Shown in pieces: positions 40,224-60,370 of a stretch of DNA of 64,000 nucleotides. A program made the translations under genes and the position numbers. The notes beneath the pieces are model-generated. The model was given only the letters and a program-made list of their open reading frames with translations. It did no database searches and was not told the origin of the DNA. Source of the DNA: Promethearchaeota archaeon (lineage in GTDB: Archaea; Asgardarchaeota; Lokiarchaeia; Sigyniarchaeales; SOKP01); NCBI GenBank assembly GCA_048940605.1, contig JBHLOJ010000001.1, positions 9,185 to 73,184 of the forward strand. Reading direction: 5' to 3'. The number at the start of each line of letters is the position of its first letter. The stretch's first letter is position 1.

Positions 40224-40426
40224 TAAGTTTTTTGTTTAAATATAAATAGGATATATGAATCAATAATCATGTTATCAGCCAAAGATAAAATAAAAGCTAA
40301 AAAAATGAATGATACTACCATCAAAATACTTTAGAGCGCGTATTGTAAAATTTCTGAGTTTGAAAGCACTTTCATGAAAAAGATTGGCGATCTCTTCGAG
40401 AAATTGGCAGAAATAAAAACAGAAAA

Positions 40427-40509
40427 TCCTTCATAAGCATTTTACGAAGTATATTCCCATTTACAACATCGTGGTAACTCCAAAGCAGCCCCCTGTGATC
40501 CTTATTATC
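40427..40509 (+). pseudogene. Remnant of a NERD-gene 3' portion (copy of 36229-36311)
   Basis: About 84% nt identity over ~83 nt to 36229-36311. The remnant encodes HFTKYIPIYNIVVTPKQPPVI versus HFTKYIPIYNIVATPQQLPVI in the intact gene. It has no intact upstream reading frame. Confidence 0.55.
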
Positions 40510-40631
40510 TCTTATTCGCTCTCTTTTTTTTAGCACAATTTTTCTTAACTTTATCTTTAAATATAAAGAATAATTACAGAGGGTAACAAAAATTTCAGTA
40601 ATCATGTATTACTCACAACAAGAGTATTTCT

Positions 40632-40823
40632 ATGAACAAAATAACCAAAGTAGGTCTCTTTATAATTTTTGTAGCATTAATATCACCTATTATCACCTTT
40701 ATGTTAAATCCTTCCAGTTCTTATGTGTGGATTATTTTATTCCCAATTGAACTTGTGATTGGAGTGATAGTACTAATAGTTGGTTTAATAATAGGGGCGT
40801 CGGGTAAGCCAGAAAAGTTATAG
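40632..40823 (+). CDS. Small membrane protein (63 aa, two predicted TM helices)
   Basis: VGLFIIFVALISPIITFML and VWIILFPIELVIGVIVLIVGLIIGA. Confidence 0.5.
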   Translation: MNKITKVGLFIIFVALISPIITFMLNPSSSYVWIILFPIELVIGVIVLIVGLIIGASGKPEKL

Positions 40824-40902
40824 GAGAAAAACAGAAGCTATTGATGTAGAAAAAATAATCACGTTCGTAAAAAAGGAACGAACAGGTTTAAATAGGGACT
40901 AA

Positions 40903-42060
40903 TTATGGGGTAAAATCTTTACATTTATTTGTAAATTTTATTTCATTCCCTTTAGAACACTTTAGAGTCGAACAGTTCTTTTCACATTTTAAACAACGTG
41001 TGATGCGTACATGTGAGCAATAATAGCAACACAATTTTGTATCTTTTTCCTTGAGCTGTGTTATTGTTAATTCGTCCTTATCTTTGCTACAGCTAATATT
41101 CTTAGTTTGCATCTTACTTGATTTTTGAGATTCCTGTTTTACAGAGTCAAGTCTACATTTTTGTTTCATTTTTTTCATATAGTTCTTTCCTGCTTCCATA
41201 AATTGCTTACCACTCTCTTCTTTTATGGTGTTTTCAACTGTCTTTATTTTATTATGGACATTTTCAATTTGCTGTAATTCTGTAGCTAGTAGACTTGTAT
41301 CATTTTTGTCTGCATCCTCGATAGAATTCGTAGATATATCAAAGCGCCCTTTTAGCTTTTTCTTAATTATCATTCTGTTTTCTATTTTTCTTAAACGGTC
41401 TAATAATTCAGTTTGAGTTATTTTTCCTTCCTTAATTAAATGTATTGACTGCTCGTCAAGTTTATTATCTAAAATGGCTTCGGCTATACGAGTTTTAACA
41501 AACATTGTTCGTTTAGCAATTCCGAAGTCTTTATAATATTTCTCTACGAATGCATCGGGAGATGAAAACATAAGTGCATCCGATGCATTTATGGTTTTGT
41601 GATCTGGAATTTCTGGGTTTTTACGGATATACTTTCCTTTTTTTGTAACAGGATACGTCTTTTCATATTTCCTTTTTAACTTGCCTAGACCTAGATAAAA
41701 TTCATAGGAAGTAAAATTCTTACGATTGTTATTTTCTATAAATTCGATATATAATTCATCAAACTCAGATAGGTTAGAATAGATTTTTGCCCTTATTGAT
41801 TCCCACCCACTGTCGTAAGCTACTAGGAATCTTATATACCCAGCCAGGAGTTTATAATTATCATTTAAGGTTATTGGATGGAGTTGTCCGATTTTACCCA
41901 TAGATTCTTTGGTAGCAATAAATCCTGGATCCAACTTATAATTTCCCGTTTCTTGACGAATTCTTTGTTGTGGATTTAGTTTAACCTTGTTAAGAGGAAC
42001 ATCTTCATCTCTTGTTGTATATGTAGGCGTTGACTCAGAAACATGATTCTCTTTAATCAT
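40903..42060 (-). CDS. ParB/Srx-fold N-terminal domain protein with Cys-rich C-terminal tail
   Basis: VPLNKVKLNPQQRIR...SMGKIGQLHPITLNDNYKLLAGYIRFLVAYDSGWESIRAKIY...IEFIENNNRKNFTSYEF follows the ParB N-terminal pattern (Q.R, G.l.Pi.v, G.rR..A, EN..R..l...E). The C-terminus is CCYYCSHVRITRCLKCEKNCSTLKCSKG...KCKDF. Confidence 0.7.
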   Translation of the reverse strand: MIKENHVSESTPTYTTRDEDVPLNKVKLNPQQRIRQETGNYKLDPGFIATKESMGKIGQLHPITLNDNYKLLAGYIRFLVAYDSGWESIRAKIYSNLSEFDELYIEFIENNNRKNFTSYEFYLGLGKLKRKYEKTYPVTKKGKYIRKNPEIPDHKTINASDALMFSSPDAFVEKYYKDFGIAKRTMFVKTRIAEAILDNKLDEQSIHLIKEGKITQTELLDRLRKIENRMIIKKKLKGRFDISTNSIEDADKNDTSLLATELQQIENVHNKIKTVENTIKEESGKQFMEAGKNYMKKMKQKCRLDSVKQESQKSSKMQTKNISCSKDKDELTITQLKEKDTKLCCYYCSHVRITRCLKCEKNCSTLKCSKGNEIKFTNKCKDFTP

Positions 42061-42064
42061 CTTC

Positions 42065-42226
42065 TTACCCTATCTCCTCATCATACTCTTGATTTAAATA
42101 CTCACAATTGTTATGTAGTAGCATAGGTAACCCTGTTAAATATCCTCCACTGTAAAATTTATTACATTTAATAAATCTTTTGAACTCCATATTAGTTCTT
42201 CTAACACGAACAATATTAACTCCCAT
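42065..42226 (-). CDS. Possible small protein (53 aa) immediately upstream of the ParB-like gene
   Basis: Below the track cutoff. Translation: MGVNIVRVRRTNMEFKRFIKCNKFYSGGYLTGLPMLLHNNCEYLNQEYDEEIG*. The stop lies 4 nt before the ParB-like ATG. Confidence 0.25.
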   Translation of the reverse strand: MGVNIVRVRRTNMEFKRFIKCNKFYSGGYLTGLPMLLHNNCEYLNQEYDEEIG

Positions 42227-42540
42227 AATTTGACTCACTGTTCGAAGGGTTACCCCCTAAATTTATGCCTTTTTACGGTATCCTATATAATTACCTTTTT
42301 CTATACCAATATAGATCTTTATTCGCTGTATTTAAACTTTTATACTATATCGGTATAGCATGGGATCTAGCTCTTTCGGATTGAGTAAAGGAATGACATT
42401 TTTCACGAGAATCTCAAGTTAGGGCATCTTATAAAATTTTCAAGCTTTTTCTATCCCTAAATCTTTAACATATATATTTAAAAACTATCCTACATAATTG
42501 TTAAACTGAAATTCGAAAATCTATTTACAACATATATAAT

Positions 42541-44538
42541 GTGATAAAATTGAGAAAAAAACATTTTTTGATTTTGATAACTTTACTACTAACAACTCTA
42601 ATTGGACTAATTGGGATTGCTCCTCAACAAGTACATGCGGATGATCCTATATCCTATGTCCCGACTAGTTACCAAGGTAAAAAAGGATCATACAGTGGCG
42701 GCAGTCTCGACAATTTATGGGAAAAAGACTCATTATATTTTGAATGGGATGTTGAGTCTACCTATATACCACCGTTTTTTACCATATATGAATTTAAAGT
42801 AGTATTCTTTTTTGATGAGAATGTTGGCCCTGTGAATGAAATCCGCATAGAACTAAGTTTCCACCAGCAAGTCAGCATTCAAGTTCATTATGAAGATGGA
42901 AGTGCTGAAGGTGGTACTACATGGCAAGGATCGTGGAGCGTAAGTCCTAATGGAAAAGAAGTAGTTAAAATAATAGCGTCATGCATATATTTTTATCCGG
43001 CAAATCCAACATGTAGATTTAACCTGATTCGCTTATATCCAATCGCGATAGCATCCCCAGCTGATGGAGCAAGTTATTCGGAGCCAATGGAAGGATACTA
43101 TCCTGGAACATATGGTTTTGAAGATGAAATTGATGGAACCTCTGGAACAGCGATTGATTTCATTGACAGTGCATCCGCCTACTCATGGTGTAAAATCCAA
43201 GGATCTTATACAGACACTAATAATGTCATCCATAACAAAGTATTACATGTAGAAGATATGTATAGAAATTATTATACAAAAGTTAGCCATACCTTTGATT
43301 CTCCACAATACCTAGCTACTATAGATTTCTGGTTTTTGATGACAAATAAATATACTGGACCAGTTGATAAAATTCTATTTTATGCTACAGATGACCAAAA
43401 TAATATTATCTTTCGATTAAATATGGGAGATGGAAAAATCATAGATTCAGGCGAAAATGAAGCGCCTATGTCGTATAATAAGTGGTATCATATTAGAATT
43501 TACTTTGTTTCAATTTTACCTGAGGGGTATTATGATTGGTATCTAAATGATGAGTTACAATATTCCGATGTTCCCTGCGAGACTTCTTATGTATATACGT
43601 CAAAACTAGTCATCGCATCATATGATGATTATTTAACTAAAGGAGAAGCGTACTTTGACGCATTTGGGTTTGATTGGGAACCTGGTTATACTATTGGTCT
43701 TAATCGCAAAGAAGGTATATTTGTTGATATTAAACATACTAATATAGATAATCTGAATTATAGTATAGATGATGGTGAATCTATAGATATTAGAGGAGAT
43801 TTTGTTATCCCTTTCCCATTTACGAGAGATCATACCATTAAAGTAGGGGGAACGTCTGATGGTATTCCGGTAGAAAGCCCACCGACTACATTTTCATTTG
43901 ATTATGGAGAAAAATATGCCGTCCTCATTTGGAATGGACATATGAGTGGTGAGTGGCGTACAGAATATTATTCAATATTATGGGCTGAAGGATTTCATTA
44001 TATATTTCAGGATGAGAACCCAAGGAAAGAGGACGTTGCGTATCTATTATCGGATGTAGCAGATATTGCAAATGAAAATGACATTATTTTTATCTACCTG
44101 TTTGGTTGGGGATACCACACGGGGGGGATTTCTTCCATAATTTTTTTTGGTTTGCATCCAGACCATTGGATTACTTCTACACAATTGAAATATTATATAG
44201 ACCAAATTCCATCCTCGAGAAAAATGGTCTTGGTAGGGAGCTCTTTTTCAGGTCAATTTATCGAAGCTTTTGATGAAGATGGTTATATCATTATGACTTG
44301 CACCGATACAGAGTCCCATGGACATATATTTGATGAATATATTCCACCCACTGATTTTTACCATGAGGAGATTTTTGTTGATGCATTCTTTGATGAAATA
44401 ACGAATGGTGCTACTTCATATGAGGCATTCGCTATAGCTCAACCTTATATAAAGGATATGTATGAAAATGAACCTTACGATGAAAGACAAAATCCTCAAA
44501 TGTCTGATCGGTGCGATATTGATTTCTTTGGATATTAA
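42541..44538 (+). CDS. Secreted LamG-like + clan CD (caspase/legumain-like) domain protein with the catalytic dyad replaced (probable pseudo-peptidase)
   Basis: Signal peptide: IKLRKKHFLILITLLLTTLIGLIGIAPQQVHA. The LamG-like module contains WYHIRIYF...YFDAFGFDW. The C-terminal domain aligns with the paralog at 45105..47132 but reads IIFIYLFGWGYHTGG and KMVLVGSSFSGQF where the paralog has LHGHG and AHCCHAGGF. Confidence 0.8.
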   Translation: MIKLRKKHFLILITLLLTTLIGLIGIAPQQVHADDPISYVPTSYQGKKGSYSGGSLDNLWEKDSLYFEWDVESTYIPPFFTIYEFKVVFFFDENVGPVNEIRIELSFHQQVSIQVHYEDGSAEGGTTWQGSWSVSPNGKEVVKIIASCIYFYPANPTCRFNLIRLYPIAIASPADGASYSEPMEGYYPGTYGFEDEIDGTSGTAIDFIDSASAYSWCKIQGSYTDTNNVIHNKVLHVEDMYRNYYTKVSHTFDSPQYLATIDFWFLMTNKYTGPVDKILFYATDDQNNIIFRLNMGDGKIIDSGENEAPMSYNKWYHIRIYFVSILPEGYYDWYLNDELQYSDVPCETSYVYTSKLVIASYDDYLTKGEAYFDAFGFDWEPGYTIGLNRKEGIFVDIKHTNIDNLNYSIDDGESIDIRGDFVIPFPFTRDHTIKVGGTSDGIPVESPPTTFSFDYGEKYAVLIWNGHMSGEWRTEYYSILWAEGFHYIFQDENPRKEDVAYLLSDVADIANENDIIFIYLFGWGYHTGGISSIIFFGLHPDHWITSTQLKYYIDQIPSSRKMVLVGSSFSGQFIEAFDEDGYIIMTCTDTESHGHIFDEYIPPTDFYHEEIFVDAFFDEITNGATSYEAFAIAQPYIKDMYENEPYDERQNPQMSDRCDIDFFGY

Positions 44539-44732
44539 TTAATCTTAACTCCTTTTTTTTTTATTTTTTGTATTTCAGCTTTAAATTCATTAAGACCATT
44601 GATTGTTAATGATTTACCTGCATAGAAATCTACGGACTTTAGCCTTAACTGTTGAATTCTACCTATTACTCCTTCATATACTTGGTCATTTGGAAAGCCA
44701 TGAAGAAGATCAGAATGGAAGAATGTTTGCAT
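44535..44732 (-). CDS. Doubtful 65-aa ORF or gene fragment
   Basis: ORF track entry. Its C-terminal KIKKKGVKIN is the reverse complement of the neighbour's T-tract terminator. The frame stays open upstream to 44840 without a start codon, so it may be a 3' fragment. Confidence 0.25.
   Translation of the reverse strand: MQTFFHSDLLHGFPNDQVYEGVIGRIQQLRLKSVDFYAGKSLTINGLNEFKAEIQKIKKKGVKIN
44553..44569 (+). terminator. Oligo-T terminator after 42541..44538
   Basis: T10-A-T6 starts 15 nt after the TAA. A conserved TTAATCTTAACTCC precedes it. Confidence 0.45.
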
Positions 44733-45104
44733 TAAATGATATTTCCATTTATCTGAGGAGATATTAGTTCGTAACTTGAAACTACCTTGACTTTCGCTAC
44801 TAAGTTTATAATTAACTCTTATGCTTATTCTGATTAATTTCTAACTGTTCATAAATACTTGATTAATACATAAAAATTTAAATCTAGAACTCCCTAATAC
44901 TCAAAGAGTTCCATTTTTTAACCTGTAATTTCATCTTTTTTATTACCTTATTTTATTTTTTATATTTTTTTTTGGAGGATCAGTTTATTCCTCTTTTTTC
45001 ATAAGTCCTAAAGATATTTAAATATTCAAAATTCTTAAAAAGCATATCTACAAAAAAATCCAAGTTTTAAAAATTCAATAAATAATTCATAAAGTGTTAT
45101 AAAT

Positions 45105-47132
45105 ATGAGAATTAAAAACAAAAACATAATGATTTTCTTCTTTTTGTGTTCAATAATACTTTCGACCTTGTTTTTTCTCAACACATTTGCCACTGTCAAT
45201 TTGAATGAACCTAATGATCCCAAAGTAGCAACAACGTCCACTGGTGTTATCAGACCAGACGGAAATATTCAAAATCAATGGGGCACCTCAGATTACTCTA
45301 GAATAGACGATGAAGTAAATAAACCAAATCCAGGGGATGGAGTTTCTAATGCTCACTCAGGTAATAACGAAATTGTCGTAGATATTTTCAGCATGGGAGA
45401 ATTCGAAGACTACGATTGTTATGATGTGTTTTCTATTAAAATACATTTAAGGTGTATGGCCATTGTTCTCCATGGCGGTTATGCAAGAATCCAGGTAACT
45501 TATAGGTTTGGTGATGAGGGAATGTGGAAAAGCCCTCTACGCACAGTAACATCTCCTTTCGGCTGGGACTGGATAACATTTACATGGGGTGCCTCGGGAG
45601 CAGATGAGTTAGATATAGATGAGTTACAGGTAAAGTTAATTGCGGATATAAGTGCTAGCGGAGAAGGGGGCGGTGTTTCTGTTGATGTTATGTATGCCGA
45701 ATTTGAATATGAACCTACAATTCGTATAATAAGTCCTGAAGATGGAGCAAGTTTCTCGGAACCAATGGAGGGATATTATCCGGCAAGTTTCGGATTTGAA
45801 AATGATATAGTTGGTCAAAATCCCTCTGGATGGGGTATTAATGAATATATAAATGTAGAAGCAGAAATTGATGGACATAAAAAAGTAGTTAAAGCAATGC
45901 CAGAAGCCGCTTTTGATTATGCCATAATGGGAAATACTTTCACAGGGCAGACATCAGGAAAGATTGAGATGTGGTATAGATGTGAAGTCGTAGAAGACTT
46001 CGATTTGTTCTATTTATATGACACTTACCAAAATGTGGCAATTAAGATAGAAAGAACAAATATTGGGAATTGGAGATATCATGGCAGAGACGGTTGGGTT
46101 GTTTTTTCGAGTGGTGAAGTCTCAGCAGATACATGGTATCATCTTCGAATCGATTTTGATTGTGAACTAGACAGGTTCGATTTTTATATTGATGGAGATT
46201 TAAAAGTAGATCATGGTCTTTTTTTCGATTGGAGAAATTCAATTGGGGAAATACGGTTAGCATCATTTAGTTTTGATGCTTTTGCATATGGATGTTATTT
46301 TGATGCAATCGGATATTCTTGGGATCCTAAATATAACATTGGAGATAATCTTAAGGAAGGTCTGTTTTTTGATATTGAACCTACTGATGCAGATGATATG
46401 TGGTATAGTTTAGATGATGGCGATCCTGTAAGCATTACAGGTGATTTTGTAATCCCATTTCCATTTACTAGACACCACACGATTAAAGTAGGCGGAACGA
46501 TTGATGGTACGGAAGTAGAAACCCCCACTACTGCTTTTTCGTTTGATTTCGGAGAAAAGATAGCAATTCTCTTTTGGCTTGATGAGGTGAATGGAACACA
46601 TATAGAAGACTATATAGAAATCTTGGAAAACGAAGGGTTTACTAAATTCTATTGTGATATGAATCTCGAACTAGGTGAGTTTTATAGTATATTTGACCAG
46701 GTGGATGCTTATGAAGATGAGAATGATATTATTTTCCTCTACTTGCATGGACATGGTGCTAGATCGGGTGATGATACAATTATACAACTTCATCCTGAAA
46801 TTACTTGGAAGTATCGTGCTACGGAGTTTATGATAGAGATGGCTCAATTGGAATCCAAACGGAAAATGGTATTAGCCCATTGCTGTCATGCGGGAGGTTT
46901 TGTTAATTATTTTGATTTTGAACCATACACTGTTATCTCATCTTGTAAAATTAATGAACTTAGCCGCCATTATCCATCGGGTGAGGGTTATTTTAATCGC
47001 CCTTTCTTTGATGCTATTGAAAATGGGGCTAATGCATACCAAGCGTTTTCAATTGCATCTGCGGAAGTGGCTAGTAGTGGTATGACACCGCAGATCTCTG
47101 ATTTATGCGATATTACCTTCTTTGCATATTAA
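45105..47132 (+). CDS. Secreted LamG-like + clan CD (caspase/legumain-like) cysteine peptidase domain protein, catalytic His/Cys present
   Basis: Signal peptide: MRIKNKNIMIFFFLCSIILSTLFFLNTFA. LamG-like module: WYHLRIDFDCELDRFDFYIDGDLKV...YFDAIGYSWDPKYNIGDN. The C-terminal domain has NDIIFLYLHGHGARSG (His-Gly, nt 46743-46757) and RKMVLAHCCHAGGF (Cys, nt 46881-46886), as in C13/C14-type peptidases. Confidence 0.8.
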   Translation: MRIKNKNIMIFFFLCSIILSTLFFLNTFATVNLNEPNDPKVATTSTGVIRPDGNIQNQWGTSDYSRIDDEVNKPNPGDGVSNAHSGNNEIVVDIFSMGEFEDYDCYDVFSIKIHLRCMAIVLHGGYARIQVTYRFGDEGMWKSPLRTVTSPFGWDWITFTWGASGADELDIDELQVKLIADISASGEGGGVSVDVMYAEFEYEPTIRIISPEDGASFSEPMEGYYPASFGFENDIVGQNPSGWGINEYINVEAEIDGHKKVVKAMPEAAFDYAIMGNTFTGQTSGKIEMWYRCEVVEDFDLFYLYDTYQNVAIKIERTNIGNWRYHGRDGWVVFSSGEVSADTWYHLRIDFDCELDRFDFYIDGDLKVDHGLFFDWRNSIGEIRLASFSFDAFAYGCYFDAIGYSWDPKYNIGDNLKEGLFFDIEPTDADDMWYSLDDGDPVSITGDFVIPFPFTRHHTIKVGGTIDGTEVETPTTAFSFDFGEKIAILFWLDEVNGTHIEDYIEILENEGFTKFYCDMNLELGEFYSIFDQVDAYEDENDIIFLYLHGHGARSGDDTIIQLHPEITWKYRATEFMIEMAQLESKRKMVLAHCCHAGGFVNYFDFEPYTVISSCKINELSRHYPSGEGYFNRPFFDAIENGANAYQAFSIASAEVASSGMTPQISDLCDITFFAY

Positions 47133-47149
47133 CTAATCTTAACTCCCAC

Positions 47150-47169
47150 TTTTTTTTTTATTTTTTTTT
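47150..47169 (+). terminator. Oligo-T terminator after 45105..47132 (between convergent genes)
   Basis: T10-A-T9 starts 18 nt after the TAA. CTAATCTTAACTCC precedes it, 13/14 identical to the sequence after the paralog. Confidence 0.45.
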
Positions 47170-47205
47170 ATCTTATGTGGTGATTGTAGTATTTGAAAGA
47201 TCAGT

Positions 47206-47406
47206 TTATTCCTCTTTTTTCGTAAGTTTTAACTGCTGTTTTTTATAGATGAGCTCGATCAACTCTTTAATTGCTTTACGACCTCCCGCAATGAATAATT
47301 CAGTAGCAGATCGATAAAATGGACACGCTTCGATAAGTTCTAGGGCTTCTTGTACCAAATAGTCTGGAATTGCGACACTATGATATTTTGATTTCTTTTT
47401 TGCCAT
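47206..47406 (-). CDS. Ribbon-helix-helix (CopG/Arc-like) DNA-binding protein
   Basis: HSVAIPDYLVQEALELIEACPFYRSATELFIAGGRKAIKELI fits beta-strand, helix, helix. GAGGTGA lies 7 nt upstream of the ATG. Confidence 0.55.
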   Translation of the reverse strand: MAKKKSKYHSVAIPDYLVQEALELIEACPFYRSATELFIAGGRKAIKELIELIYKKQQLKLTKKEE

Positions 47407-47417
47407 GTTTTTTCACC

Positions 47418-48056
47418 TCAGATTGTATAGAGCATTAGCCATCGTCTTTTAAAAATAATACTCTCATTTACCAAGCAATTCTGGTTATGAACCACTATCT
47501 CCCCATATTTACAGGCATAAAAAAGTTGATCGACTAAGCGATTATTTCGAAATAAGGCATCACCCGTTATTTTCATCTCGGGATTGATAGAGTAGAGGGC
47601 TTCTAGGAGGGATTCAAAGACACCGAGTTGAAGATTAATGATGGGGATCTCTTCAATATGAGTATACTTGGATAGCTCGATATCTTGACATTCTAAATAG
47701 TGATAAATCTTCTTTATCTCTATTTTTTCGTGGTCACTAAAGGTAAAAAAAACTAGACACTCAAAACTACTTAGAATTTTCATCAGAAGTAAGTACAGTT
47801 CTACCTTATACTCATAATCCTCGATATAAAAAGAAAATAAGGTGTCAAATACCATGAGTCCCACCATGAAAACAGGGTTGCCTTCAAAATCTAAGATTGC
47901 TGCTTGATGGATAATCGGAGTAGATAAAGATTTAAGTACAAGCTTCACATGGTCTCCTCTATCGATGGATTTCAATTCTTTAATAATTTTTTCATAATCA
48001 AAAGTTCGGGTGATTGTATAGGCATAATTCCATTTTTTCAACTCATTCATCCCCAT
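47418..48056 (-). CDS. Hypothetical protein (212 aa); weak resemblance to an RNase H-fold/DEDD-type exonuclease
   Basis: Overlaps the upstream gene by 14 nt (ATGGGGATGAATGA). AAILDFEGNP...LVFFTFSDHEKIEI is a loose D-x-E ... (N/S)-x2-(F/S)-D pattern only. Confidence 0.6.
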   Translation of the reverse strand: MGMNELKKWNYAYTITRTFDYEKIIKELKSIDRGDHVKLVLKSLSTPIIHQAAILDFEGNPVFMVGLMVFDTLFSFYIEDYEYKVELYLLLMKILSSFECLVFFTFSDHEKIEIKKIYHYLECQDIELSKYTHIEEIPIINLQLGVFESLLEALYSINPEMKITGDALFRNNRLVDQLFYACKYGEIVVHNQNCLVNESIIFKRRWLMLYTI

Positions 48057-50340
48057 CCCTGAGAGTAAATTCTTTTAGGAACTTTACAATGGAAAAATAC
48101 ATTAAACTCACAAAATACATCGCATTAATGAGCTTCTCTTCTTTATCATCGCTCTCATTTCTAACCTCTCCGATGGAGTGACGGGCGATATCGAGGAGAG
48201 CAGACACTTCCTTTTTTAATAGTTCGAGTGAATTTTTCTGATTCTGAGGTAAGATTAGAGATTTTTCATTTATCAATGTAATGTCAATGATTAAATACAC
48301 TGCAATACTGTACATATTTTCAGTTTGAGTAAGAAAATTGGAAAATTCCCATTGGTTTTTGAATAATTCGAGTAAATACTCTTGATTTTCTTGAATAAAG
48401 ACCGGTGATTTGGTATTAAAGAAAAACTCATGGTAATATAGAGTAGTCAGGCAATTGTAGAAAACTGGAAAGCTAATAGTATCTGTAAGTAGATGTAATC
48501 TCAGCAAATCAAGTATTTTATTCTTATTTTCTATCTCTATATCTTGTAATAATCTGTTAATTTCAATAGATAGTTTTCTCTCCTCTATCCCATTCTTATT
48601 AAGAACTCGTTTATAAATATAGTTATAGACTCCTCGTAGTTCATAGAAGTGATGCCAAAAATGAAATGAATTGGGTGTCCTTCTCATCGCGTAGGTAGTG
48701 CCAAATCTCAACAAGGTGGCAAAACTGGGATACAATTTATCAGGACGTAAGAGCATCTGGACATGGTCTCGAGTGATGGTATTTGGTTTCTGTAAGAACA
48801 GGTCTGCGTCATTTGTATCAAATTTATCTAGCACAGCTTTGATTTTCGCATCCTCTAGTACATTACTATACGTTAAATATCGCTCAGAAATCCCTTCTCC
48901 TTTTCCATCGGAAATAGGAATTGAGACCAATCGACTTAGAGGATGAGGAGAGAAGAGGCGAAATACACCTTTATTCACGCTTGAAGTATCTAACAATATC
49001 GCTATTAAATCCTTCGAATCGACTGCTAACCGAAAAAGCTGTTGCCCATGAAGAATCTTTAATTTTCTGCGGATTTCGGGAGGGACGACAATGGTTTCCT
49101 TGTATACCGTATAAAGGAGTAGCGATTGTAAGAGAGACTTTATAAACTTGAATTTATCGTTCAAACTACTAATTTTTTCTTTTTTCAATGTGGTGATCCC
49201 TGGAAGTAACGAATTATCTGCTAACTCGGGTAAATTGACATGATGTTCAATGTCGGTAATCGTATCATAGTCCATCGCATATAACAGATGGATTCCTCTG
49301 GAACCGCTGAAAATCATCTTAAAAGACGGAAGTCCTAAACCTTGAGCGGTAGTATTTATTGCCTGTGCGATATTGGTAGTGAGTTCCCAAATAGTCTGTC
49401 GCGAAAACATACTGGAAAGGAGTGAAGGGATATCAATATCAATAAGCAGGTAAAGGATATCATTGTTGGTACTTCTTACGCTTAAATAAATTCCTCCAAT
49501 ATCGTTCTCTTGTACAATTTCCTTATATTTTTCATAGGGGGTATTCTTTGAGAGTAATTGGTGAAACTTCATCTTGGTATCTTTTAATGATACAGTTCTT
49601 CGTTTTGCTGGAAATTTATCTTCCTTAACAATATCTAAGGTGATCTCCGCATTCCCTTGAAAGTTATCAGGGAACATGTACGTTTTTAGGATTTCATAGA
49701 ATTTGGGATGTTGAAGATACTCGGTGTCGTCCGTTGATAAAAAATCGTGCAATTCGTCATATTCTTTGCGTTCCAAGTTATGCTCTAAGACTTGATCATA
49801 TTCCTCTGTTCCTTTCCTTTGGATATAGACCTTTCCGATGATTTGTTGAGCAAAGGTAAACTCGTCAAGAGCCCACATCTTTATAAAAGCAACTATATCT
49901 CGGAGTTTTACTAATCGCAAGTTAAATTCCATTGAGATAATATCCATGCGATTACTTTCTCTGGTGTACTCGTTTTTTACCAGATATTCTAATCTCTGGA
50001 GTTTTATACCATCTTTAAACACATAATAGCGATCAATAGTGAAGTTGAGTTTATTCATTAAATTTGAGATGGCATACTTAATCATATCTTTGGTCTTATC
50101 GAAGGTAGCTTCCGTTTCATGGCTTTTAATCACTCCTTCTTCATAGAGAGTGTTGATAACATCAATATCAGGGCTAAGGATTTCCAGTTGCACTTTTACT
50201 TTTTGAATTCGATTATAAATGTCATCTTTTCCTTTGGTAAATTCAGTTCGTAATATATCAATAAACTGCCTGAAGTCAAAGGTGGACGTGGAGATATCTT
50301 CCAGTAAGTAGTCAATCTTCGAAGCATAATAGAGACTCAT
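48043..50340 (-). CDS. Archaeo-eukaryotic primase (AEP) superfamily primase-polymerase-like protein (765 aa from Met-20 of the track ORF)
   Basis: Motif I: YLLIDIDIP (about nt 49430-49445). Motif II: MIFSGSRGIHLLY (about nt 49287-49310). Motif III: ILLDTSSVNKGVFRLFSPHPLSRLVSIPI (about nt 48938-48996). These correspond to DxD, sGxGxH and D...R..S.H of PriS/PrimPol. The start was moved to ATG 50338-50340, which sits 1 nt after the upstream stop at 50342-50344. Confidence 0.75.
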   Translation of the reverse strand: MSLYYASKIDYLLEDISTSTFDFRQFIDILRTEFTKGKDDIYNRIQKVKVQLEILSPDIDVINTLYEEGVIKSHETEATFDKTKDMIKYAISNLMNKLNFTIDRYYVFKDGIKLQRLEYLVKNEYTRESNRMDIISMEFNLRLVKLRDIVAFIKMWALDEFTFAQQIIGKVYIQRKGTEEYDQVLEHNLERKEYDELHDFLSTDDTEYLQHPKFYEILKTYMFPDNFQGNAEITLDIVKEDKFPAKRRTVSLKDTKMKFHQLLSKNTPYEKYKEIVQENDIGGIYLSVRSTNNDILYLLIDIDIPSLLSSMFSRQTIWELTTNIAQAINTTAQGLGLPSFKMIFSGSRGIHLLYAMDYDTITDIEHHVNLPELADNSLLPGITTLKKEKISSLNDKFKFIKSLLQSLLLYTVYKETIVVPPEIRRKLKILHGQQLFRLAVDSKDLIAILLDTSSVNKGVFRLFSPHPLSRLVSIPISDGKGEGISERYLTYSNVLEDAKIKAVLDKFDTNDADLFLQKPNTITRDHVQMLLRPDKLYPSFATLLRFGTTYAMRRTPNSFHFWHHFYELRGVYNYIYKRVLNKNGIEERKLSIEINRLLQDIEIENKNKILDLLRLHLLTDTISFPVFYNCLTTLYYHEFFFNTKSPVFIQENQEYLLELFKNQWEFSNFLTQTENMYSIAVYLIIDITLINEKSLILPQNQKNSLELLKKEVSALLDIARHSIGEVRNESDDKEEKLINAMYFVSLMYFSIVKFLKEFTLRDGDE

Positions 50341-50341
50341 C

Positions 50342-51115
50342 CTAGACCACCCCCTCCACTTTTTTGTTTTCTGCCATGCTGTGTTGTAAAAAGGCATTTA
50401 AATCCTCTTGGAAGTCATTGTCCACTAGTACGTTAAAATATTTTACTAACAATAGCAATTTACATAAAAGCGATATGCCGAAACTCTTCATGTTAAATTC
50501 AAAAGTGCCTTGCTTGGATTTGAGTAAATCAAGTACAGTTGAGTTCTGGAGATCGGCTTGAAATTTTTTGTAAGAATCTTCAAAAAGGAGTTTTAGCTCT
50601 TCTTTGGTGGTCAATACTGGAGAAATTGGATTGTGAGGGGGAGATATGCCTTGAGAAGGAGTAGTACCACTGGTGGAAAGCACCCCTTCTTGAAGATTCT
50701 TGTGTGCCATTCCCTGATTTTTATCTATGGTAGTGTTTTCTGGAGTGGTTTCAATGCCATTTTTCTGAAGCTCGGAGAAGGTGTAGGTCTCCTCTAGGGG
50801 AACAATTACTTTAGGGTGATTTTTACAATAGAATGTTAAAGAGCGAATGGTAATTTGGCTCTCATGAGGATGAAGTATATTCTCAAGCGGAAAAAAAAGA
50901 GTAAAATAATGGGAATTATATTCAATATTTCTGTTATAAATCCTACATTGTTCTTTCACCTTCTTGAGAGGATCATTTATTAAACTAATTTCATAATTGA
51001 CAGTTACACTTTTCAGATGCTCAGGAGTGATATACTGGTCCTTATCTACTCCATTTCTTTCACAAAAAATCGAAATACCACTGTCTATATGAAACTTAAT
51101 ATTTAACACGTTCAT
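50342..51115 (-). CDS. Hypothetical protein (257 aa), first gene of the AEP operon
   Basis: ORF track entry. It has two domains joined by a low-complexity linker (TSGTTPSQGISPPHNPISP). No motif recognised. Confidence 0.65.
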   Translation of the reverse strand: MNVLNIKFHIDSGISIFCERNGVDKDQYITPEHLKSVTVNYEISLINDPLKKVKEQCRIYNRNIEYNSHYFTLFFPLENILHPHESQITIRSLTFYCKNHPKVIVPLEETYTFSELQKNGIETTPENTTIDKNQGMAHKNLQEGVLSTSGTTPSQGISPPHNPISPVLTTKEELKLLFEDSYKKFQADLQNSTVLDLLKSKQGTFEFNMKSFGISLLCKLLLLVKYFNVLVDNDFQEDLNAFLQHSMAENKKVEGVV

Positions 51116-54043: not shown

Positions 54044-54499
54044 TTACTGATTGTCCATTTTTTTCCTTAGTAATGAAATGGCGATGGCACTGCTTACCTG
54101 CTGTTTCTGAATAAAGTCAATAAGGAGTTCATTGTCAATGGCGCTCACATCGATGTTCTCGACCACTTTCTCAATCTCATTCTCAATCTCGAGCACCTGC
54201 TTTTCGATTGCCTTCCCGATTTTCCGATGGATGCCCCACGTTCCCAAGAATCTCTGCTCTATAGGGTTAGTAGGGATGATAACTTTCTTGATTTTTTCGC
54301 GAACGGTCTTTCGCACTAAATCCGAGATGCTCTTATATTCGGTGAGGTCTACGTAATGCTGATATAATGCCAACTCTTCGGGAAGCATGCGGATGGTGAG
54401 GGTTTCGCCTTTCGGTTTTTTGGCATTCTCTTTTTCCAAGACCTCCTCCAGCTTCTCCAAGACCTCATCATCGATGGCCACAATATTTTTCACTACCAT
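54044..54499 (-). CDS. Hypothetical protein with a probable ribbon-helix-helix segment
   Basis: GETLTIRMLPEELALYQHYVDLTEYKSISDLVRKTVREKI fits beta-strand, helix, helix. Confidence 0.55.
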   Translation of the reverse strand: MVVKNIVAIDDEVLEKLEEVLEKENAKKPKGETLTIRMLPEELALYQHYVDLTEYKSISDLVRKTVREKIKKVIIPTNPIEQRFLGTWGIHRKIGKAIEKQVLEIENEIEKVVENIDVSAIDNELLIDFIQKQQVSSAIAISLLRKKMDNQ

Positions 54500-54609: not shown

Positions 54610-55581
54610 TCACGAATCTAAGGCTACAACAGCGCATTTTAAGGTCCCACCCGGAATATAAGGTGGAGTATGAGGACCACCAGCTATTTCCAGACCATAT
54701 AAATCTGCAGCAGCTTGTGCCCCACTCCACAGATAAAAATTATCGAAATCGTCACTATCTACACAAATTGGATTAATTTCATAATTATTAGAACTAGAAG
54801 CTGAACCCATAGCATAACCTTTATAAAGAACACGACATCCTGTCGGAGGAGTCCAAGAACCCCATAATATAAAAGTTGGTTCAAGTGCATAGCAAACAGC
54901 TGCAAATACAAGGTAGTCCATATAGAAAAATAATTCTGTAGGAAGATTTCCATGAAGTCTAAGCGGATAAAATGCTGGATTTGTGATTATGTCATCACCC
55001 CCAGGTTCAGGTGGTGGATCATATGTAAGTACTATAGGATCGGAAGGTGCCCCTGGGAGACCTGTATAAACACCTGCACAACCAAGTCCCCAGTATAAAA
55101 GAGTGGTTCCTTCAGGTGCTGTTCTGTTCCCCCAACGAATAAAAACACTTCCTCCCTGTGGCGTTGGGAGCGGATTATTGTTTACCAATATCCAGATTTC
55201 ATCCTTAACTACATTATTTAAGATATCAGTAGCTATCACAGTTAAATTATGCCACCCATCTAGAACCACACTTGAATTCCAAGTTAATGTTGAAGACGAT
55301 CCAATCTCAAATCCGTCGAAAAGGATTGAGAGAGAATAATCAGAACTTGCCCACACCATGACTCTAATAGTTATATTCCCTGATACCGTCTCCCCTTCGT
55401 CGGGATCTAATATTCCCACTTGTAATCCTACCATATCTAGACCGTCTTCTCCATCTTGTCCTGGAAGTCCTTGAGGGCCTTCTACTGTCTGAAAATTGAC
55501 CATTGAGTATGCTCCAATTCCTAATCCAGACGCCCCAATAATAAGTGCGATGATTCCAAATACTGAACTTTTATTTTCCAT
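54610..55581 (-). CDS. Membrane-anchored protein with a short collagen-like G-X-Y run, an Ig-like region and a bipartite C-terminal domain resembling collagen IV NC1 / spongin C4
   Basis: N-terminal TM: VFGIIALIIGASGLGIGAY. GPQGLPGQDGEDGLD gives 5 G-X-Y triplets (nt 55435-55479). The C-terminal 181 aa (nt 54613-55155) form two halves. One runs VFIRWGNRTAPEGTTLLYWG...FAAVCYA and the other FILWGSWTPPTGCRVLYKGYAMG...ICVD...LKCAVVAL. Confidence 0.7.
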   Translation of the reverse strand: MENKSSVFGIIALIIGASGLGIGAYSMVNFQTVEGPQGLPGQDGEDGLDMVGLQVGILDPDEGETVSGNITIRVMVWASSDYSLSILFDGFEIGSSSTLTWNSSVVLDGWHNLTVIATDILNNVVKDEIWILVNNNPLPTPQGGSVFIRWGNRTAPEGTTLLYWGLGCAGVYTGLPGAPSDPIVLTYDPPPEPGGDDIITNPAFYPLRLHGNLPTELFFYMDYLVFAAVCYALEPTFILWGSWTPPTGCRVLYKGYAMGSASSSNNYEINPICVDSDDFDNFYLWSGAQAAADLYGLEIAGGPHTPPYIPGGTLKCAVVALDS

Positions 55582-58101: not shown

Positions 58102-58195
58102 GTCCTACTGGTAGGTGTCGCGTTTTCCAAAACTTTTATATAAGATTCTATATAATTTTCTACATGATTGTCTACACATTTTTGGCGAAAACAAT

Positions 58196-60370
58196 ATGAA
58201 AAAACCTTCAAAAAAGAAGATAATAACAATTCTTGTAAATATTATTCTTGGTTTCTCGATATTTATCAATGTCAGTTCTTATTACTGCCAGAATTTTAAT
58301 AATGGATATGTAAAAGAAGATAATGAAAACTCACTGAAACAGGCAGGATTCTGGGAAATTGAACCGTTTGAAATTTATGATGATGATCCTACAAGAAATT
58401 GGTTAATTACAAAAGCTACCTATGATTGGTGTTCTGGTTCTGGAACTCTAAATGATCCCTATGTAATCGAAAATGTGACGATTGACGGTTCTGGTTCTGG
58501 TATGAATCATTGTATTCGGATTCAAAATTCCATTGCTTATTTCATCATTAATAATTGTACTTTGTATAATGGTTTTGATTACGGAATCGTTTTATCTTCT
58601 GTTAGCAATGGATTATTAAAAGAAAATAATTGTTCTAATAATGGGCGTTCTGGAATTTTACTTGAATTTTCTGATAATAACACTATCTTGAATAATACTG
58701 CAAATAATCATCGATCTTTAACACTTGATCATACCGGAATACGTGTGGAAAGTGGGAGTGATAATAATACAATAAAAGGAAATATCGTTAACAATAATGA
58801 TTTTGGAATCTATTTAAGAAGCGACTATGATTCTGGGATAAAGGATAATATAATTCAAAACAATTGTGTTAATGGTAATCGAAGAGATGGTATTCGCATT
58901 TACTCAAGTGGTGAGGATGATAGTTGTACAAATAATGTGCTTCTCAATAATGTTATTAATAATAATGGGTATACAGCGATCCACCTTACAAGTAATGGAA
59001 TTATTGACGACAATGAGATTAAGAGAAATATCATTAAGAATAATGACGGTGGGATATCCTTGATTCATGCTTCTTCAGCATATGGATCATGTAAAAATAA
59101 CATAATATTAGGAAATTTTATTAATAATTGTACAGAAAACGGAATTAAATTAGGACAATTTACAGAGAATAACAATATTTCAGGTAATAATATTACTGAC
59201 CATGATTTGTATGGTTTATTAATTGAATCTAATTCAAATAGTAATGTTATTTATAATAATACTTTTATCGAAAATACTATAAATGCATTAGACAGTGGTA
59301 TAGGAAACCAATGGGATTTTGGTTCATTGGGAAATTGTTGGGATGATTATCCAGGTGTGGATGCAAATGACGATGGTATTGGAGATACATCATACGATGT
59401 GCCCCCTGCGGGTGGGAGTGTAGATAATTATCCAATATGGGATGATGGGGATGATCTTGCTCCAGAGATAATAATTAATTCCCCTTCTATGAATGATGCC
59501 TTTGGATTAACTGCTCCTGATTTTGAAATAGCTATTAATGATGCATCTCCTATAAATACAACATGGTATACTATTGATGGTGGTATGAATAATTATACAT
59601 TTTATGGATTAACAGGAACGATAAACCAGACCGCATGGGATAATAAAGGGACTGAAGAGCTAATGACATTACGATTTTATGCGAATGACTCTTTAGGACA
59701 TTTAGGGTTTAAAGATGTTTCTATTTGGAAAGATATAGTTGCTCCCCAAATTACCATTAACGCCCCTACGTCAAATCAATTATGCGGAGTTGATGCGCCG
59801 ACTTTTTCCCTTACGATAATTGAGCCAAATATTCTTTCGACACTATATTCCTTTAACGGAAGACCCAATATTACCTCGGATATTCAAGCAGAATGGGAGA
59901 ATATTGGGAATGGTACGGTCTTAATAACTATTTCTGTTTTAGATAAAGCGGGAAATGTGAATTCAAGTGAGGTAACTGTGAGAAAAGATGCATATATACC
60001 AGATGTTATAGTTCACTCCCCAATTTCCGGTGAGACGTTTGGAAAAACCCCTCCGACGTTTAATATTTCTATCATTGAAGAAGATCTCGACTCAATGTGG
60101 TATACTGTAGAACATATCGCAGGAACATTTCCGCTTTCAGAACTAACTGGAACTATAGACCAAGATGCGTGGAGTGATGTTCCTGAAGAAGAAATCACTT
60201 TTATTTTCTATGCCCAAGATCGAGCAGGAAATATTGGAACTGAAACCATAACAGTTATCAAAGCCATTCCAAAATCGACACCAGTGATTCCAAGCTATAA
60301 TCTATTCTTTTTATTGGGAATTCTCTCAGTTGTGTTCGTCATAGTAAGTAAAAAAACAATGAAAAAATGA
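58196..60370 (+). CDS. NosD-like right-handed parallel beta-helix surface protein with Ig-like repeats and C-terminal IPSY + TM + basic tail anchor
   Basis: Start taken at ATG 58196 (MKKPSKKKIITILVNIILGFSIFINV signal/anchor); the track starts at GTG 58115. PbH1-type repeats: NNGRSGILLEFSDNNTILNNTANN, GIRVESGSDNNTIKGNIVNNNDFGIYL, and more. The NosD-like C-terminal motif is GNCWDDYPGVDANDDGIGDTSYDV...DNYPIW. Ig-like repeats begin at DLAPEIIINSP and DIVAPQITINAP. The protein ends VIPSYNLFFLLGILSVVFVIVSKKTMKK. Confidence 0.8.
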   Translation: MKKPSKKKIITILVNIILGFSIFINVSSYYCQNFNNGYVKEDNENSLKQAGFWEIEPFEIYDDDPTRNWLITKATYDWCSGSGTLNDPYVIENVTIDGSGSGMNHCIRIQNSIAYFIINNCTLYNGFDYGIVLSSVSNGLLKENNCSNNGRSGILLEFSDNNTILNNTANNHRSLTLDHTGIRVESGSDNNTIKGNIVNNNDFGIYLRSDYDSGIKDNIIQNNCVNGNRRDGIRIYSSGEDDSCTNNVLLNNVINNNGYTAIHLTSNGIIDDNEIKRNIIKNNDGGISLIHASSAYGSCKNNIILGNFINNCTENGIKLGQFTENNNISGNNITDHDLYGLLIESNSNSNVIYNNTFIENTINALDSGIGNQWDFGSLGNCWDDYPGVDANDDGIGDTSYDVPPAGGSVDNYPIWDDGDDLAPEIIINSPSMNDAFGLTAPDFEIAINDASPINTTWYTIDGGMNNYTFYGLTGTINQTAWDNKGTEELMTLRFYANDSLGHLGFKDVSIWKDIVAPQITINAPTSNQLCGVDAPTFSLTIIEPNILSTLYSFNGRPNITSDIQAEWENIGNGTVLITISVLDKAGNVNSSEVTVRKDAYIPDVIVHSPISGETFGKTPPTFNISIIEEDLDSMWYTVEHIAGTFPLSELTGTIDQDAWSDVPEEEITFIFYAQDRAGNIGTETITVIKAIPKSTPVIPSYNLFFLLGILSVVFVIVSKKTMKK

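Follow-up and report, generated by a model that had tools for sequence, protein, structure and literature searches.

A rare Asgard archaeal protein carries a two-lobed C-terminal domain distantly related to collagen IV NC1

Collagen IV, with its NC1 domain, counts among the key innovations that underlie basement membranes and multicellularity in animals. At present, NC1 is seen as an invention of holozoans or metazoans, whose union with G-X-Y repeats gave rise to collagen IV. The domain has twelve conserved cysteines forming three disulfides per lobe. Three NC1 monomers, each with two lobes, close into a ring of pseudo-sixfold symmetry, which nucleates triple-helix formation; in collagen IV these trimers pair into hexamers with a chloride ring and a Met-Hyl sulfilimine cross-link. 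Other animal proteins, such as ectodysplasin-A, collagens XIII and XVII and MARCO, have an N-terminal signal-anchor, an extracellular G-X-Y region and a C-terminal globular trimeric head. The origin of NC1 has been placed at the metazoan or holozoan stem, its source being left open (PMC5395295; bioRxiv 10.1101/2021.10.08.463732). In bacteria, the "mosaic adhesive trimer" (MAT) fibres of Bdellovibrio are built from a constant N-terminal anchor and exchanged C-terminal tips (Caulton et al. 2024, PMC10769870). That paper makes no mention of an NC1-like tip, and the literature searched contained no publication describing a prokaryotic NC1.

Here, we describe a gene located in a 64,000-nucleotide stretch of Asgard archaeal DNA, called the window below. 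The 323-residue product starts with an N-terminal anchor and a short G-X-Y stretch, continues with an Ig-like (Big_7) domain and ends in two lobes that form its C-terminal domain (Table 1). The lobes contain the motifs SVFIRWG (residues 145-151), AAVCYA (227-232), EPTFILWG (234-241), NPICVD (270-275) and LKCAVVAL (314-321). Single-sequence searches of the protein against Pfam, NCBIfam and PDB gave no relevant match; its relationship to NC1 is visible only with profiles and structure. Full-length orthologues, with 50-70% identity, are found only in other Asgard MAGs or in metagenomes. A check for RNA evidence showed that the sequencing runs holding the gene are DNA only, from sediment metagenomes. 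Taken as a whole, the protein is probably best explained as a surface stalk, likely trimeric, that bears a swapped-in NC1-like head; the head belongs to a prokaryotic family and was probably acquired from bacteria.

Table 1. Features of the gene and of its product. Positions are those of the window.
Feature	Position	Strand	Basis
Whole gene, ATG start, 323 aa	54610..55581	minus	ORF list and translation
Stop codon	54610-54612	minus	
Hydrophobic N-terminal anchor, residues 7-30, VFGIIALIIGASGLGIGAYSMVNF	55492..55563	minus	Kyte-Doolittle and conservation
Five collagen-like G-X-Y triplets, residues 35-49	55435..55479	minus	Sequence reading
Ig-like (Big_7-type) beta-sandwich, residues 52-135	55177..55428	minus	Pfam, AF2, Foldseek
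NC1-like lobe 1, residues 145-232, SVFIRWGNRTAPEGTTLLYWG ... AAVCYA	54886..55149	minus	Profiles, AF2/Foldseek, hhalign
NC1-like lobe 2, residues 233-323, LEPTFILWGSWTPPTGCRVLYKGYAMG ... NPICVD ... LKCAVVALDS	54613..54885	minus	Profiles, AF2/Foldseek, hhalign

The hydrophobic anchor follows the peptide MENKSS. Its Kyte-Doolittle maximum is 2.05, for the best 19-residue span (residues 6-24), and the segment is nearly invariant in an alignment of 27 Asgard proteins. A signal peptide of class III (pilin type) seems less likely at this conserved N-terminus, since serine, and not the usual glycine or alanine, precedes the hydrophobic stretch. From its sequence, the protein is predicted to be a type II membrane-anchored surface protein with its C-terminus outside. 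The peptide GPQGLPGQDGEDGLD then forms exactly five G-X-Y triplets; like the anchor, these had been pointed out in an earlier note on this DNA and can be read from the sequence. Six triplets or more are the usual threshold for a collagen repeat (PMC11923368). Judged by at least six contiguous triplets or a match to Pfam Collagen, the window protein has no collagen repeat, since it has five triplets and a scan of the 323 residues with PF01391 gave no match. Five triplets are also shorter than the length usually held sufficient for a triple helix. Homologues have 4 to ~19 triplets at the equivalent position, where precomputed PF01391 matches are found in family members P0016, P0020 and P0036. 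As expected, the AF2 monomer is of low confidence over the G-X-Y stretch.

The Ig-like stretch of the earlier note corresponds to a folded domain. The Pfam Big_7 match is weak (E 0.002, below cut-off). The AF2 model is a 7-strand beta-sandwich with pLDDT 87-95, and Foldseek retrieves bacterial Fn3/Ig-like modules at the top, including CbhA Fn3-like modules (E 1.5e-5); one of these matches is 3pe9 (TMt 0.72, rmsd 2.5 A). Anchor, G-X-Y stretch and Ig domain together form a conserved N-terminal module, with the pattern M(V)ENKSSLFGIIAIIIGASGLGLGAF...EGPQG...Ig, which is followed by a variable C-terminal tip. Over its 140 residues, the module of the window protein shows 45-78% identity with that of 26 other proteins. 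Among 400 genomes of the phylum, 49 have the module. A set of 83 proteins carries it with at least 27 BLAST-distinct C-terminal tips. The module is native to the phylum, and the tips are unrelated to one another. The window protein thus has the features of the Asgard anchor-GXY-Big_7 modular surface proteins, a family without a name.

At the C-terminus, the two-lobed domain is genuinely, if distantly, related to collagen IV NC1 and to the NC1-like domain found in short-chain collagens of the spongin type, as the earlier note had proposed from motifs. A family profile was built from 44 prokaryotic homologues. Searched against PDB, it gave significant matches (E <= 0.01) to collagen IV NC1 chains only (6mpx_A 8e-10, 6wku_A 1e-5, 1li1_A 9e-4, 1m3d_A 1e-3, 5naz_A 9e-3), the few other rows having E values of ~1. 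The alignment covers the inter-lobe junction 'C-A-V-C ... P-x-G-W-x-x-L-(Y/W)-x-G-Y'. Comparison by hhalign with human alpha1 NC1, using a sequence confirmed in parts by the PDB alignments, gave an E value of 2e-5 and a probability of 77% over 63 columns. The AF2 model of residues 140-323 (pLDDT 90.2, pTM 0.87) has the three-dimensional fold of NC1. With this model, all of the first 40 Foldseek matches in PDB are collagen IV NC1 (E 2e-5 to 8e-2, probability 0.85-1.0, TM 0.41-0.55). From rank 41 onward the matches are noise (E ~1), and the unrelated beta-sandwich that would have spoken against the proposal of the earlier note does not compete.

We collected 15 holozoan NC1-like units, from Choanoeca, metagenomic eukaryotes and a mollusc. 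The prokaryotic profile aligns with them end to end (hhalign 99.9%, E 4e-36, 174 columns) and detects them by hmmsearch with domain E values of 1e-13 to 1e-34; phmmer E values against holozoan NC1-like proteins range from 1e-17 to 2e-28. In turn, the profile of the holozoan units matched NC1 alone in PDB.

The domain is part of a large family of fibre-tip domains that is mostly bacterial, and a supposed hallmark of the animal lineage therefore has prokaryotic relatives. A single query gave 568 matches, the best 150 of which form at least ~60 clusters at 50% identity. No model in Pfam or NCBIfam covers this prokaryotic family, which is therefore an annotation gap. Its members come mostly from metagenome contigs; named carriers are Planctomycetota, Verrucomicrobiota, Desulfobacteraceae, Parabeggiatoa and one Thaumarchaeota MAG. 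Protein searches using a coarse word index returned the query and one orthologue with residues 140-323 alone, and 10 proteins with the prokaryotic family alignment; an alignment-based locus search returned a single Parabeggiatoa locus. The spread across named genomes is therefore poorly sampled. Nearly every member of the family is an exported protein of fibre-like type with the NC1-like domain at its C-terminus. The bacterial proteins have MAT-N-like anchor domains, true collagen repeats or coiled coils in front of it. Weak similarity to Bdello_MAT_N was found in 8 of the 11 bacterial members scanned, all below the curated cut-off and six with E values of 8e-10 to 3e-6. In P0088, P0089 and P0094, G-X-Y repeats lead straight into the NC1-like domain, and P0089 has a Pfam Collagen match (2e-14). 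According to the earlier note, the domain is not known to have been described in archaea. This agrees with the literature searched, but the archaeal copy is a rare offshoot of a large, mainly bacterial family.

These features suggest how the protein may work. It would probably trimerize through its G-X-Y stretch and its NC1-like head. By analogy with Bdellovibrio MAT fibres or with ectodysplasin-type membrane collagens, the head may be shown on the cell surface as an exchangeable ligand-binding or adhesive tip. Alternatively, NC1-like heads could join head to head, from trimer to hexamer, and connect molecules of one cell or of adjacent cells into a surface mesh or a cell-cell junction. The fold is conserved, and the collagen IV NC1 trimers matched here (1li1, 1m3d and 6mpx) make hexamers. 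We nevertheless regard such a lattice as unlikely: the head is one of at least 27 swappable tips, there is one copy per genome and the gene is missing from nearly all relatives. Recognition of variable ligands fits better with these observations than a core lattice, and an exchangeable tip remains our preferred reading.

The distribution of the tip differs from that of the stalk. The homologue survey proposed in the earlier note recovered orthologues in other Asgard MAGs. A single genome among 400 of the phylum has the NC1-like tip, and there is one copy per genome. In an unrooted tree, the four Asgard copies form one clade (support 100/99) within a bacterial group, and the holozoan sequences form a separate clade (support 100/100). 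Rooting by the lobe duplication was attempted. The lobes cluster by lineage, with lobes 1 and 2 of prokaryotes opposed to lobes 1 and 2 of holozoans (support 86/94), and not by lobe; the tree consequently has no root. This lineage-wise clustering may hint at independent duplication, concerted evolution or an artefact driven by cysteines. The direction of transfer is read from the unrooted tree together with the rarity of the domain. On this basis, the NC1-like tip was most probably gained from bacteria by one ancestral transfer. The bacterial tip would have been grafted onto the native Asgard stalk and would since have adopted the codon usage of the host. An origin from phage tail fibres was also considered. 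A Foldseek search of the NC1-like model against the viral predicted structures of BFVD gave no match at E <= 0.001, so this origin is unsupported.

Vertical heritage would instead place the domain in the Asgard ancestor of eukaryotes, as the direct forerunner of animal NC1. An Asgard host, the homology with holozoan NC1-like domains and the lack of a root in the tree are compatible with this idea, which we nonetheless judge very improbable. Just one in 400 genomes of the phylum carries the domain, and the Asgard clade is placed within bacterial diversity, not as sister to holozoans. Moreover, every eukaryote match recovered here that has a name comes from a holozoan, either a mollusc or one of two choanoflagellates, and two more are metagenome sequences; vertical descent would then need massive loss in all other eukaryotes. 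The NC1-like tip is not evidence of an Asgard-to-eukaryote link or of eukaryote ancestry.

A profile of lobe 1 aligns with one of lobe 2 over 83 columns (hhalign probability 99.6%, E 7e-24). This likeness is far above chance and argues that the lobes, already seen in the earlier note as two similar halves, are homologous. Their reduced length and missing cysteines are likewise borne out. The lobes have ~90 residues, compared with ~110 in collagen IV NC1, and of the six disulfide pairs of NC1 a single one remains, C273/C316, at the C2-C5 position of lobe 2. Both cysteines of this pair are present in 36 of the 44 family members. Lobe 1 of the window protein is without any NC1-type disulfide: a lone Cys230 stands at C6, its C1 partner being absent. 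Substitutions are Ala at C1 and C5 and Val at C2 in lobe 1, and Pro at C1 and Val at C6 in lobe 2. Across the family, the C2/C5 cysteines of lobe 1 co-vary, both being present in 11 sequences and neither in 33 (p 1e-10). Cysteine-richer bacterial members, such as P0180 and P0100, bridge the cysteine frameworks.

Pfam C4 (PF01413; gathering threshold 27 bits) does not recognize the domain. The HMMER check suggested in the earlier note came back negative, with no match at E <= 10 for the whole protein or for the isolated domain. The same model matched 1 of 44 prokaryotic family members (E 0.57) and 1 of 15 holozoan units (E 0.014). The window protein is therefore a distant superfamily relative of NC1 and not a Pfam-defined member. 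TM-scores to NC1 are moderate, and with an rmsd of 8-9 A over the whole domain, loops and lobe packing differ from those of NC1. The silence of Pfam C4, TM-scores of just ~0.5 and the loss of most NC1 cysteines could be taken to mean that an unrelated beta-rich domain merely acquired NC1-looking motifs, by chance or convergence. This view is strongly disfavoured, as three independent searches (prokaryotic profile, holozoan profile and Foldseek) all reach NC1 only, the match to the holozoan units spans the full length and P0180 and P0100 link the cysteine frameworks.

All evidence on provenance marks the gene as native and prokaryotic. A holozoan or animal gene, brought in by contamination or by mis-binning of the contig, would agree with NC1 being otherwise reported from holozoans only (PMC5395295; bioRxiv 10.1101/2021.10.08.463732), but its probability is negligible: the gene has no introns and sits on a contig of 110 kb among genes of prokaryote type (NYN, response regulator, beta-helix), GC3 of its NC1-like part is 0.20, as in the host genome, its N-terminal 140 residues are the module of 49 of 400 genomes in the phylum, orthologues are carried by independent Thorarchaeota and Helarchaeota MAG contigs, and the nearest non-Asgard relatives are bacterial, not eukaryotic. 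Contamination is thus excluded, and the contig provenance that the earlier note wished to see verified is archaeal. The neighbourhoods of the orthologues in two other Asgard MAGs are unrelated, and there is consequently no operon context.

The prokaryotic NC1-like family provides a concrete candidate source for the animal NC1 module and makes the question testable. The evidence for it includes bacterial members fused directly to collagen repeats and one membrane-anchored archaeal version. A broader scenario can be put forward tentatively. Prokaryotic C-terminal fibre heads that form trimers might be an ancient, widespread group, with NC1 as one of its branches; collagen and NC1 would already have been combined in bacteria, in proteins of the Verrucomicrobiota type (P0088, P0089, P0094), from which horizontal transfer would have brought the combination to the holozoan stem. 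The Asgard head would then be an independent, membrane-anchored acquisition, possibly serving contact with partner cells. For Asgard biology, the results point to a tip-swapping surface-protein system on a constant anchor-GXY-Ig stalk. The window gene should not be taken for a eukaryotic signature protein.

Collagen IV NC1 (PF01413; 1LI1, 1M3D, 1T60, 5NAX, 8TYS) is among the closest described systems. Both domains have two tandem homologous lobes, and NC1 is the sole fold retrieved by Foldseek for the window domain. In each lobe, motifs are found in the same order, h-h-x-(R/H)-(W/S)-G ... (C/A)-P-x-G ... L-(Y/W)-x-G-Y ... C-(L/V) ... (K/R)-C-A-V-C. Both are C-terminal in an extracellular, collagen-associated protein, the location being predicted for the window protein, and the C2-C5 disulfide position of lobe 2 is shared. 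In contrast, the window protein has shorter lobes, a single disulfide pair out of six and no Pfam C4 match, together with a predicted N-terminal membrane helix and an archaeal host. The order of collagen followed by a duplicated lobe, claimed in the earlier note, holds in so far as both elements are present; the Ig domain (residues 52-135) interrupts it, and only five triplets precede, so that the domain does not directly follow a long triple helix. The bacterial P0088, P0089 and P0094 do share the place of NC1 directly C-terminal to collagen repeats.

The NC1-like units of spongin short-chain and 'short-chain collagen C4-like' proteins resemble the window domain in their RWG-type lobe start and compact lobes. 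Holozoan examples are the tandem units of Choanoeca perplexa (P0071) and Bicosta minor (P0121). In these units the C1/C6 and C2/C5 cysteines are invariant in both lobes, whereas they are mostly lost in the window protein, and the holozoan sequences form a clade of their own. Animal type II transmembrane collagens and collagen-stalked ligands have a similar layout. This is an analogy only, their head domains (TNF, SRCR) being unrelated. As for MAT fibres, the window protein has no match to Bdello_MAT_N (NCBIfam NF053851), its anchor being the Asgard-specific TM-GXY-Ig module. The design, with a constant anchor and swapped tips, is nevertheless the same, and many bacterial carriers of NC1-like tips have MAT-N-like N-termini.

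The sequence strings cited in the earlier note were all found in the 323-aa protein (hereafter the window protein) by direct reading. Gene GC is 0.41 overall against a window mean of 0.34, the increase being due to Gly, Pro and Ala codons. The C-terminal part has a third-position GC of 0.20, and the neighbouring genes are equally AT-rich (0.23-0.37). Ahead of the N-terminal helix, Lys4 is the sole positive charge.

Parts of the window protein and nearby ORFs (nucleotide positions in the window, residue numbers in the protein)
Feature	Position	Strand	Remarks
Whole gene	54610..55581	-	single ORF, ATG start, 323 aa
N-terminal anchor M(V)ENKSSLFGIIAIIIGASGLGLGAFSVVNFQ	55492-55581, residues 1-30	-
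Hydrophobic segment	residues 7-30		preceded by short polar N-terminus MENKSS; best 19-residue Kyte-Doolittle window 2.05
G-X-Y stretch GPQGLPGQDGEDGLD	residues 35-49		exactly five triplets
Beta-rich stretch, Ig-like domain	residues 52-135
Pro-rich linker NNNPLPTPQGG			between beta-rich stretch and C-terminal region
C-terminal NC1-like region	residues 145-323		179 residues
ORF directly downstream	54044-54499	-	151 aa
Beta-helix ORF, 2.5 kb off	58115-60370	+	751 aa; NosD/right-handed beta-helix repeats, hydrophobic C-terminal tail
Run of large ORFs	36579-50397		1214, 665, 675 and 784 aa; no Pfam family at E <= 0.001

Searches with a single sequence miss the relationship between the C-terminal region and NC1, the C-terminal head of collagen IV. 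The HMMER check against Pfam C4 (PF01413) proposed in the earlier note gave no match for the window protein even at E <= 10; the protein alone also had no NCBIfam match and no relevant one in the PDB. Exhaustive searching with phmmer across 1.84 billion cluster representatives returned 568 matches, and about 60 of the best 150 span residues 140-320 with E-values of 1e-12 to 1e-28. When a profile of 44 prokaryote-type domains (alignment A1) was compared with the PDB, the sole significant matches were collagen IV NC1 chains (6mpx_A, 8e-10; 6wku_A, 1e-5; 1li1_A, 9e-4; 1m3d_A, 1e-3; 5naz_A, 9e-3). The remaining collagen IV alpha chains trail at weaker E-values, and the only non-NC1 rows, 7q4y_A and 6ccr_A, have E-values of about 1. 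The A1 side of the alignment reads 'KAAVCyadaPt..wG...aPaGWsvlYkGYamg'.

The C-terminal domain was modeled confidently by AF2 with A1 (pLDDT 90.2, pTM 0.87). In a Foldseek search of 350,542 PDB chains, the 40 best-ranked matches are all collagen IV NC1 (E 2e-5 to 8e-2, probability 0.85-1.0, TM 0.41-0.55). From rank 41 on, unrelated folds appear with E-values of about 1 and probabilities of at most 0.02. The structure clearly points to NC1, and not to the unrelated beta-sandwich that the earlier note had named as a refuting outcome. Profiles of A1 and of 15 holozoan two-lobed units (A3) align end to end (hhalign 99.9%, E 4e-36, 174 columns), and the A3 profile itself matches only NC1 in the PDB. 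A3 was drawn from Choanoeca perplexa, two metagenomic eukaryote-type proteins and the mollusc Batillaria; units of the Bicosta minor protein P0121 were omitted because they were out of phase. The two similar halves claimed from the sequence are real, lobe 1 being homologous to lobe 2 (hhalign 99.6%, E 7e-24). The profile, structural, holozoan and lobe comparisons together support the proposed NC1-like identity. The C-terminal domain is a divergent NC1-superfamily variant from which most NC1 cysteines are gone.

The choanoflagellate giants P0071 (Choanoeca perplexa, 3949 aa) and P0121 (1601 aa) carry tandem two-lobed NC1-like units that are not separated by collagen repeats. In P0071, nine tandem units were found for A3, and at least nine lie within the first 1700 residues.

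The prokaryotic family departs from canonical NC1 in several respects. Lobes are about 90 aa long, and the whole-domain rmsd between the model and NC1 crystal structures is 8-9 A. Pfam C4 misses the family as a whole, picking up just one of the 44 members (E 0.57) and one of the 15 holozoan units (E 0.014). NC1 cysteine positions (C1-C6 in each lobe) were mapped onto A1. In lobe 1, 11 sequences have Cys at both C2 and C5 and 33 at neither (Fisher p 1e-10, sequences counted without phylogenetic correction); in lobe 2, both are Cys in 36/44, and C1 and C6 co-vary (p 7e-4). Such co-variation is the pattern that disulfide partners would show. The sole NC1 cysteine pair retained in the window protein is C273/C316 (lobe 2, C2-C5). 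Its Cys230 occupies the lobe-1 C6 position (the 'AAVC' column), where 34/44 sequences have Cys. The NC1 partner of this position, C1 ('CP.G'), is Ala in 42/44 and Cys in only one. A free thiol or an inter-chain bond are candidate roles for the cysteine of this column. The cysteine-richer bacterial members P0180, P0100, P0136, P0139 and P0163 bridge toward the holozoan framework.

Named prokaryotic sources of the domain are Planctomycetota, Verrucomicrobiota, Desulfobacteraceae, Parabeggiatoa/Beggiatoa and one Thaumarchaeota MAG, the majority of members coming from metagenome contigs without organism name. The domain nearly always forms the very C-terminal end of an exported, fibre-like protein. 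Upstream, bacterial members may have a signal peptide and an 'xxYQGRL' domain. NCBIfam Bdello_MAT_N was matched by 8 of the 11 members scanned, six of them at E 8e-10 to 3e-6, all below the curated cut-off. This model describes the anchor that stays constant in Bdellovibrio mosaic adhesive trimer (MAT) fibres (PMC10769870). Coiled-coil-like stretches are also found upstream. In the metagenome proteins P0088, P0089 and P0094 (the last labelled Verrucomicrobiota), G-X-Y repeats pass directly into the NC1-like domain ('...GLPGPDAGNVFIRWGN'), and P0089 has a Pfam Collagen match (E 2e-14). MAT-N-like, coiled-coil and collagen stalks all belong to types that are typically trimers. Predicted viral structures gave no match to the NC1-like model.

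The Parabeggiatoa NC1-like protein (MAG locus L001, 2530-3396) stops early, inside lobe 2, relative to the 331-aa members of its cluster. Its gene is followed by a 451-aa ORF (3547-4902) that resembles, by eye alone, a TnpB/IS605 OrfB-type transposon protein.

In Asgard archaea, the domain is one of many tips swapped on a constant module. The first 140 residues of the window protein (anchor, G-X-Y triplets and Ig-like domain) are 45-78% identical to their counterparts in many MAG proteins labelled Promethearchaeota, Thor-, Hel- and Hodarchaeota. Elsewhere, the module bears a right-handed beta-helix, a proprotein-convertase P domain or many unannotated domains. Among 83 retrieved module-bearing proteins, at least 27 tips are mutually unconnected by BLAST, the NC1-like tip being a cluster of four. 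Triplet number at the same position ranges from about 4 to about 19, and several proteins have Pfam Collagen matches. The module, whole or partial, occurs in 49/400 sampled genomes of the phylum and 22/85 genera, with a near-full-length match in about 16 of the 49. Most genomes have one copy, the maximum being four matches in one genome (G211); the genome of the window carries a single one.

Residues 55-115 have only a sub-threshold Pfam match, to Big_7 (E 0.002). Given 27 aligned homologues of the N-terminal module, AF2 predicts the Ig-like domain as a seven-strand sandwich (pLDDT 87-95) resembling bacterial Fn3/Ig-like modules in Foldseek, such as CbhA 3pe9 (TMt 0.72, rmsd 2.5 A). Residues 1-49 have low confidence, as expected of a monomer prediction. 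The anchor is rich in small-xxx-small motifs. In dozens of Asgard proteins it hardly varies, and its conservation exceeds that of the neighbouring Ig domain. A sorting or processing signal and a helix-packing (trimer) element are possible alternatives to a plain signal-anchor.

The NC1-like domain occurs in one of the 400 genomes, the window's own, and in none of its many congeners. Other Asgard copies come only from one JGI contig and from MAGs labelled Thorarchaeota and Helarchaeota, the latter two in unrelated gene neighbourhoods. Contamination, a concern of the earlier note, is excluded by the 110-kb contig, the prokaryote-type neighbours (NYN, response regulator, beta-helix protein) and the Asgard-specific N-terminal half in the same ORF. 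Maximum-likelihood analysis unites the four Asgard sequences in a single clade (100/99) within a bacterial group and places the holozoan units in a clade of their own (100/100), adjoining the cysteine-richer bacterial subgroup. In a single-lobe tree, prokaryotic L1 and L2 group together, as do holozoan L1 and L2 (86/94), rather than L1 with L1. Because lobes cluster by lineage and not by lobe, rooting by the duplication failed; this pattern could stem from independent duplications, from concerted evolution or from an artefact of cysteine composition. The window protein probably obtained its NC1-like domain from bacteria. The simplest scenario is a single gain of a bacterial tip, followed by its fusion to the native module and patchy spread. 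Codon usage is host-like, so the acquisition was not recent.

The downstream 151-aa ORF has a third-position GC of 0.586, against 0.2-0.37 in all neighbours, odd for the host genome, and only a weak DUF6290 (ribbon-helix-helix-like) match. Beta-helices are the second commonest tip cluster on the module elsewhere; the 751-aa neighbour carries its beta-helix on a different scaffold.

In collagen IV, three NC1 heads assemble into a six-lobed ring, and nucleation of the triple helix starts from this C-terminal end. In the window protein, the N-terminal helix would anchor the chain with its C-terminus outside. Three chains would join via the G-X-Y segment, by itself too short for stability, and the NC1-like head, which would serve as a distal putative binding surface. 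A collagen IV-like head-to-head hexamer, linking cells or forming a mesh, is possible but unsupported.

Collagen IV and NC1 are regarded in one paper as an innovation of metazoans ('absent in unicellular sister-groups'; PMC5395295) and dated in another to a filasterean/choanozoan ancestor (bioRxiv 10.1101/2021.10.08.463732); both papers leave the source of the module open. Searches of the accessible literature covering bacteria, prokaryotes, horizontal transfer and Asgard found no description of a prokaryotic NC1, so the statement that the domain is undescribed in archaea holds there. Resources built on structure, such as CATH or Gene3D, may already tag some bacterial members. Asgard-eukaryote ancestry is of lesser interest, and the distribution of the domain argues against it. 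The main interest is that the NC1 module, and even its fusion to collagen, has a broad prokaryotic background. Our data support the window protein as an archaeal tip-swapping surface protein bearing an NC1-like head. Tips reported for MAT fibres are TNF-like, C-type-lectin and novel sandwich domains, NC1 being absent from the list (PMC10769870). The architecture of P0088, P0089 and P0094 is that of collagen IV and spongin short-chain collagens, but in bacteria.
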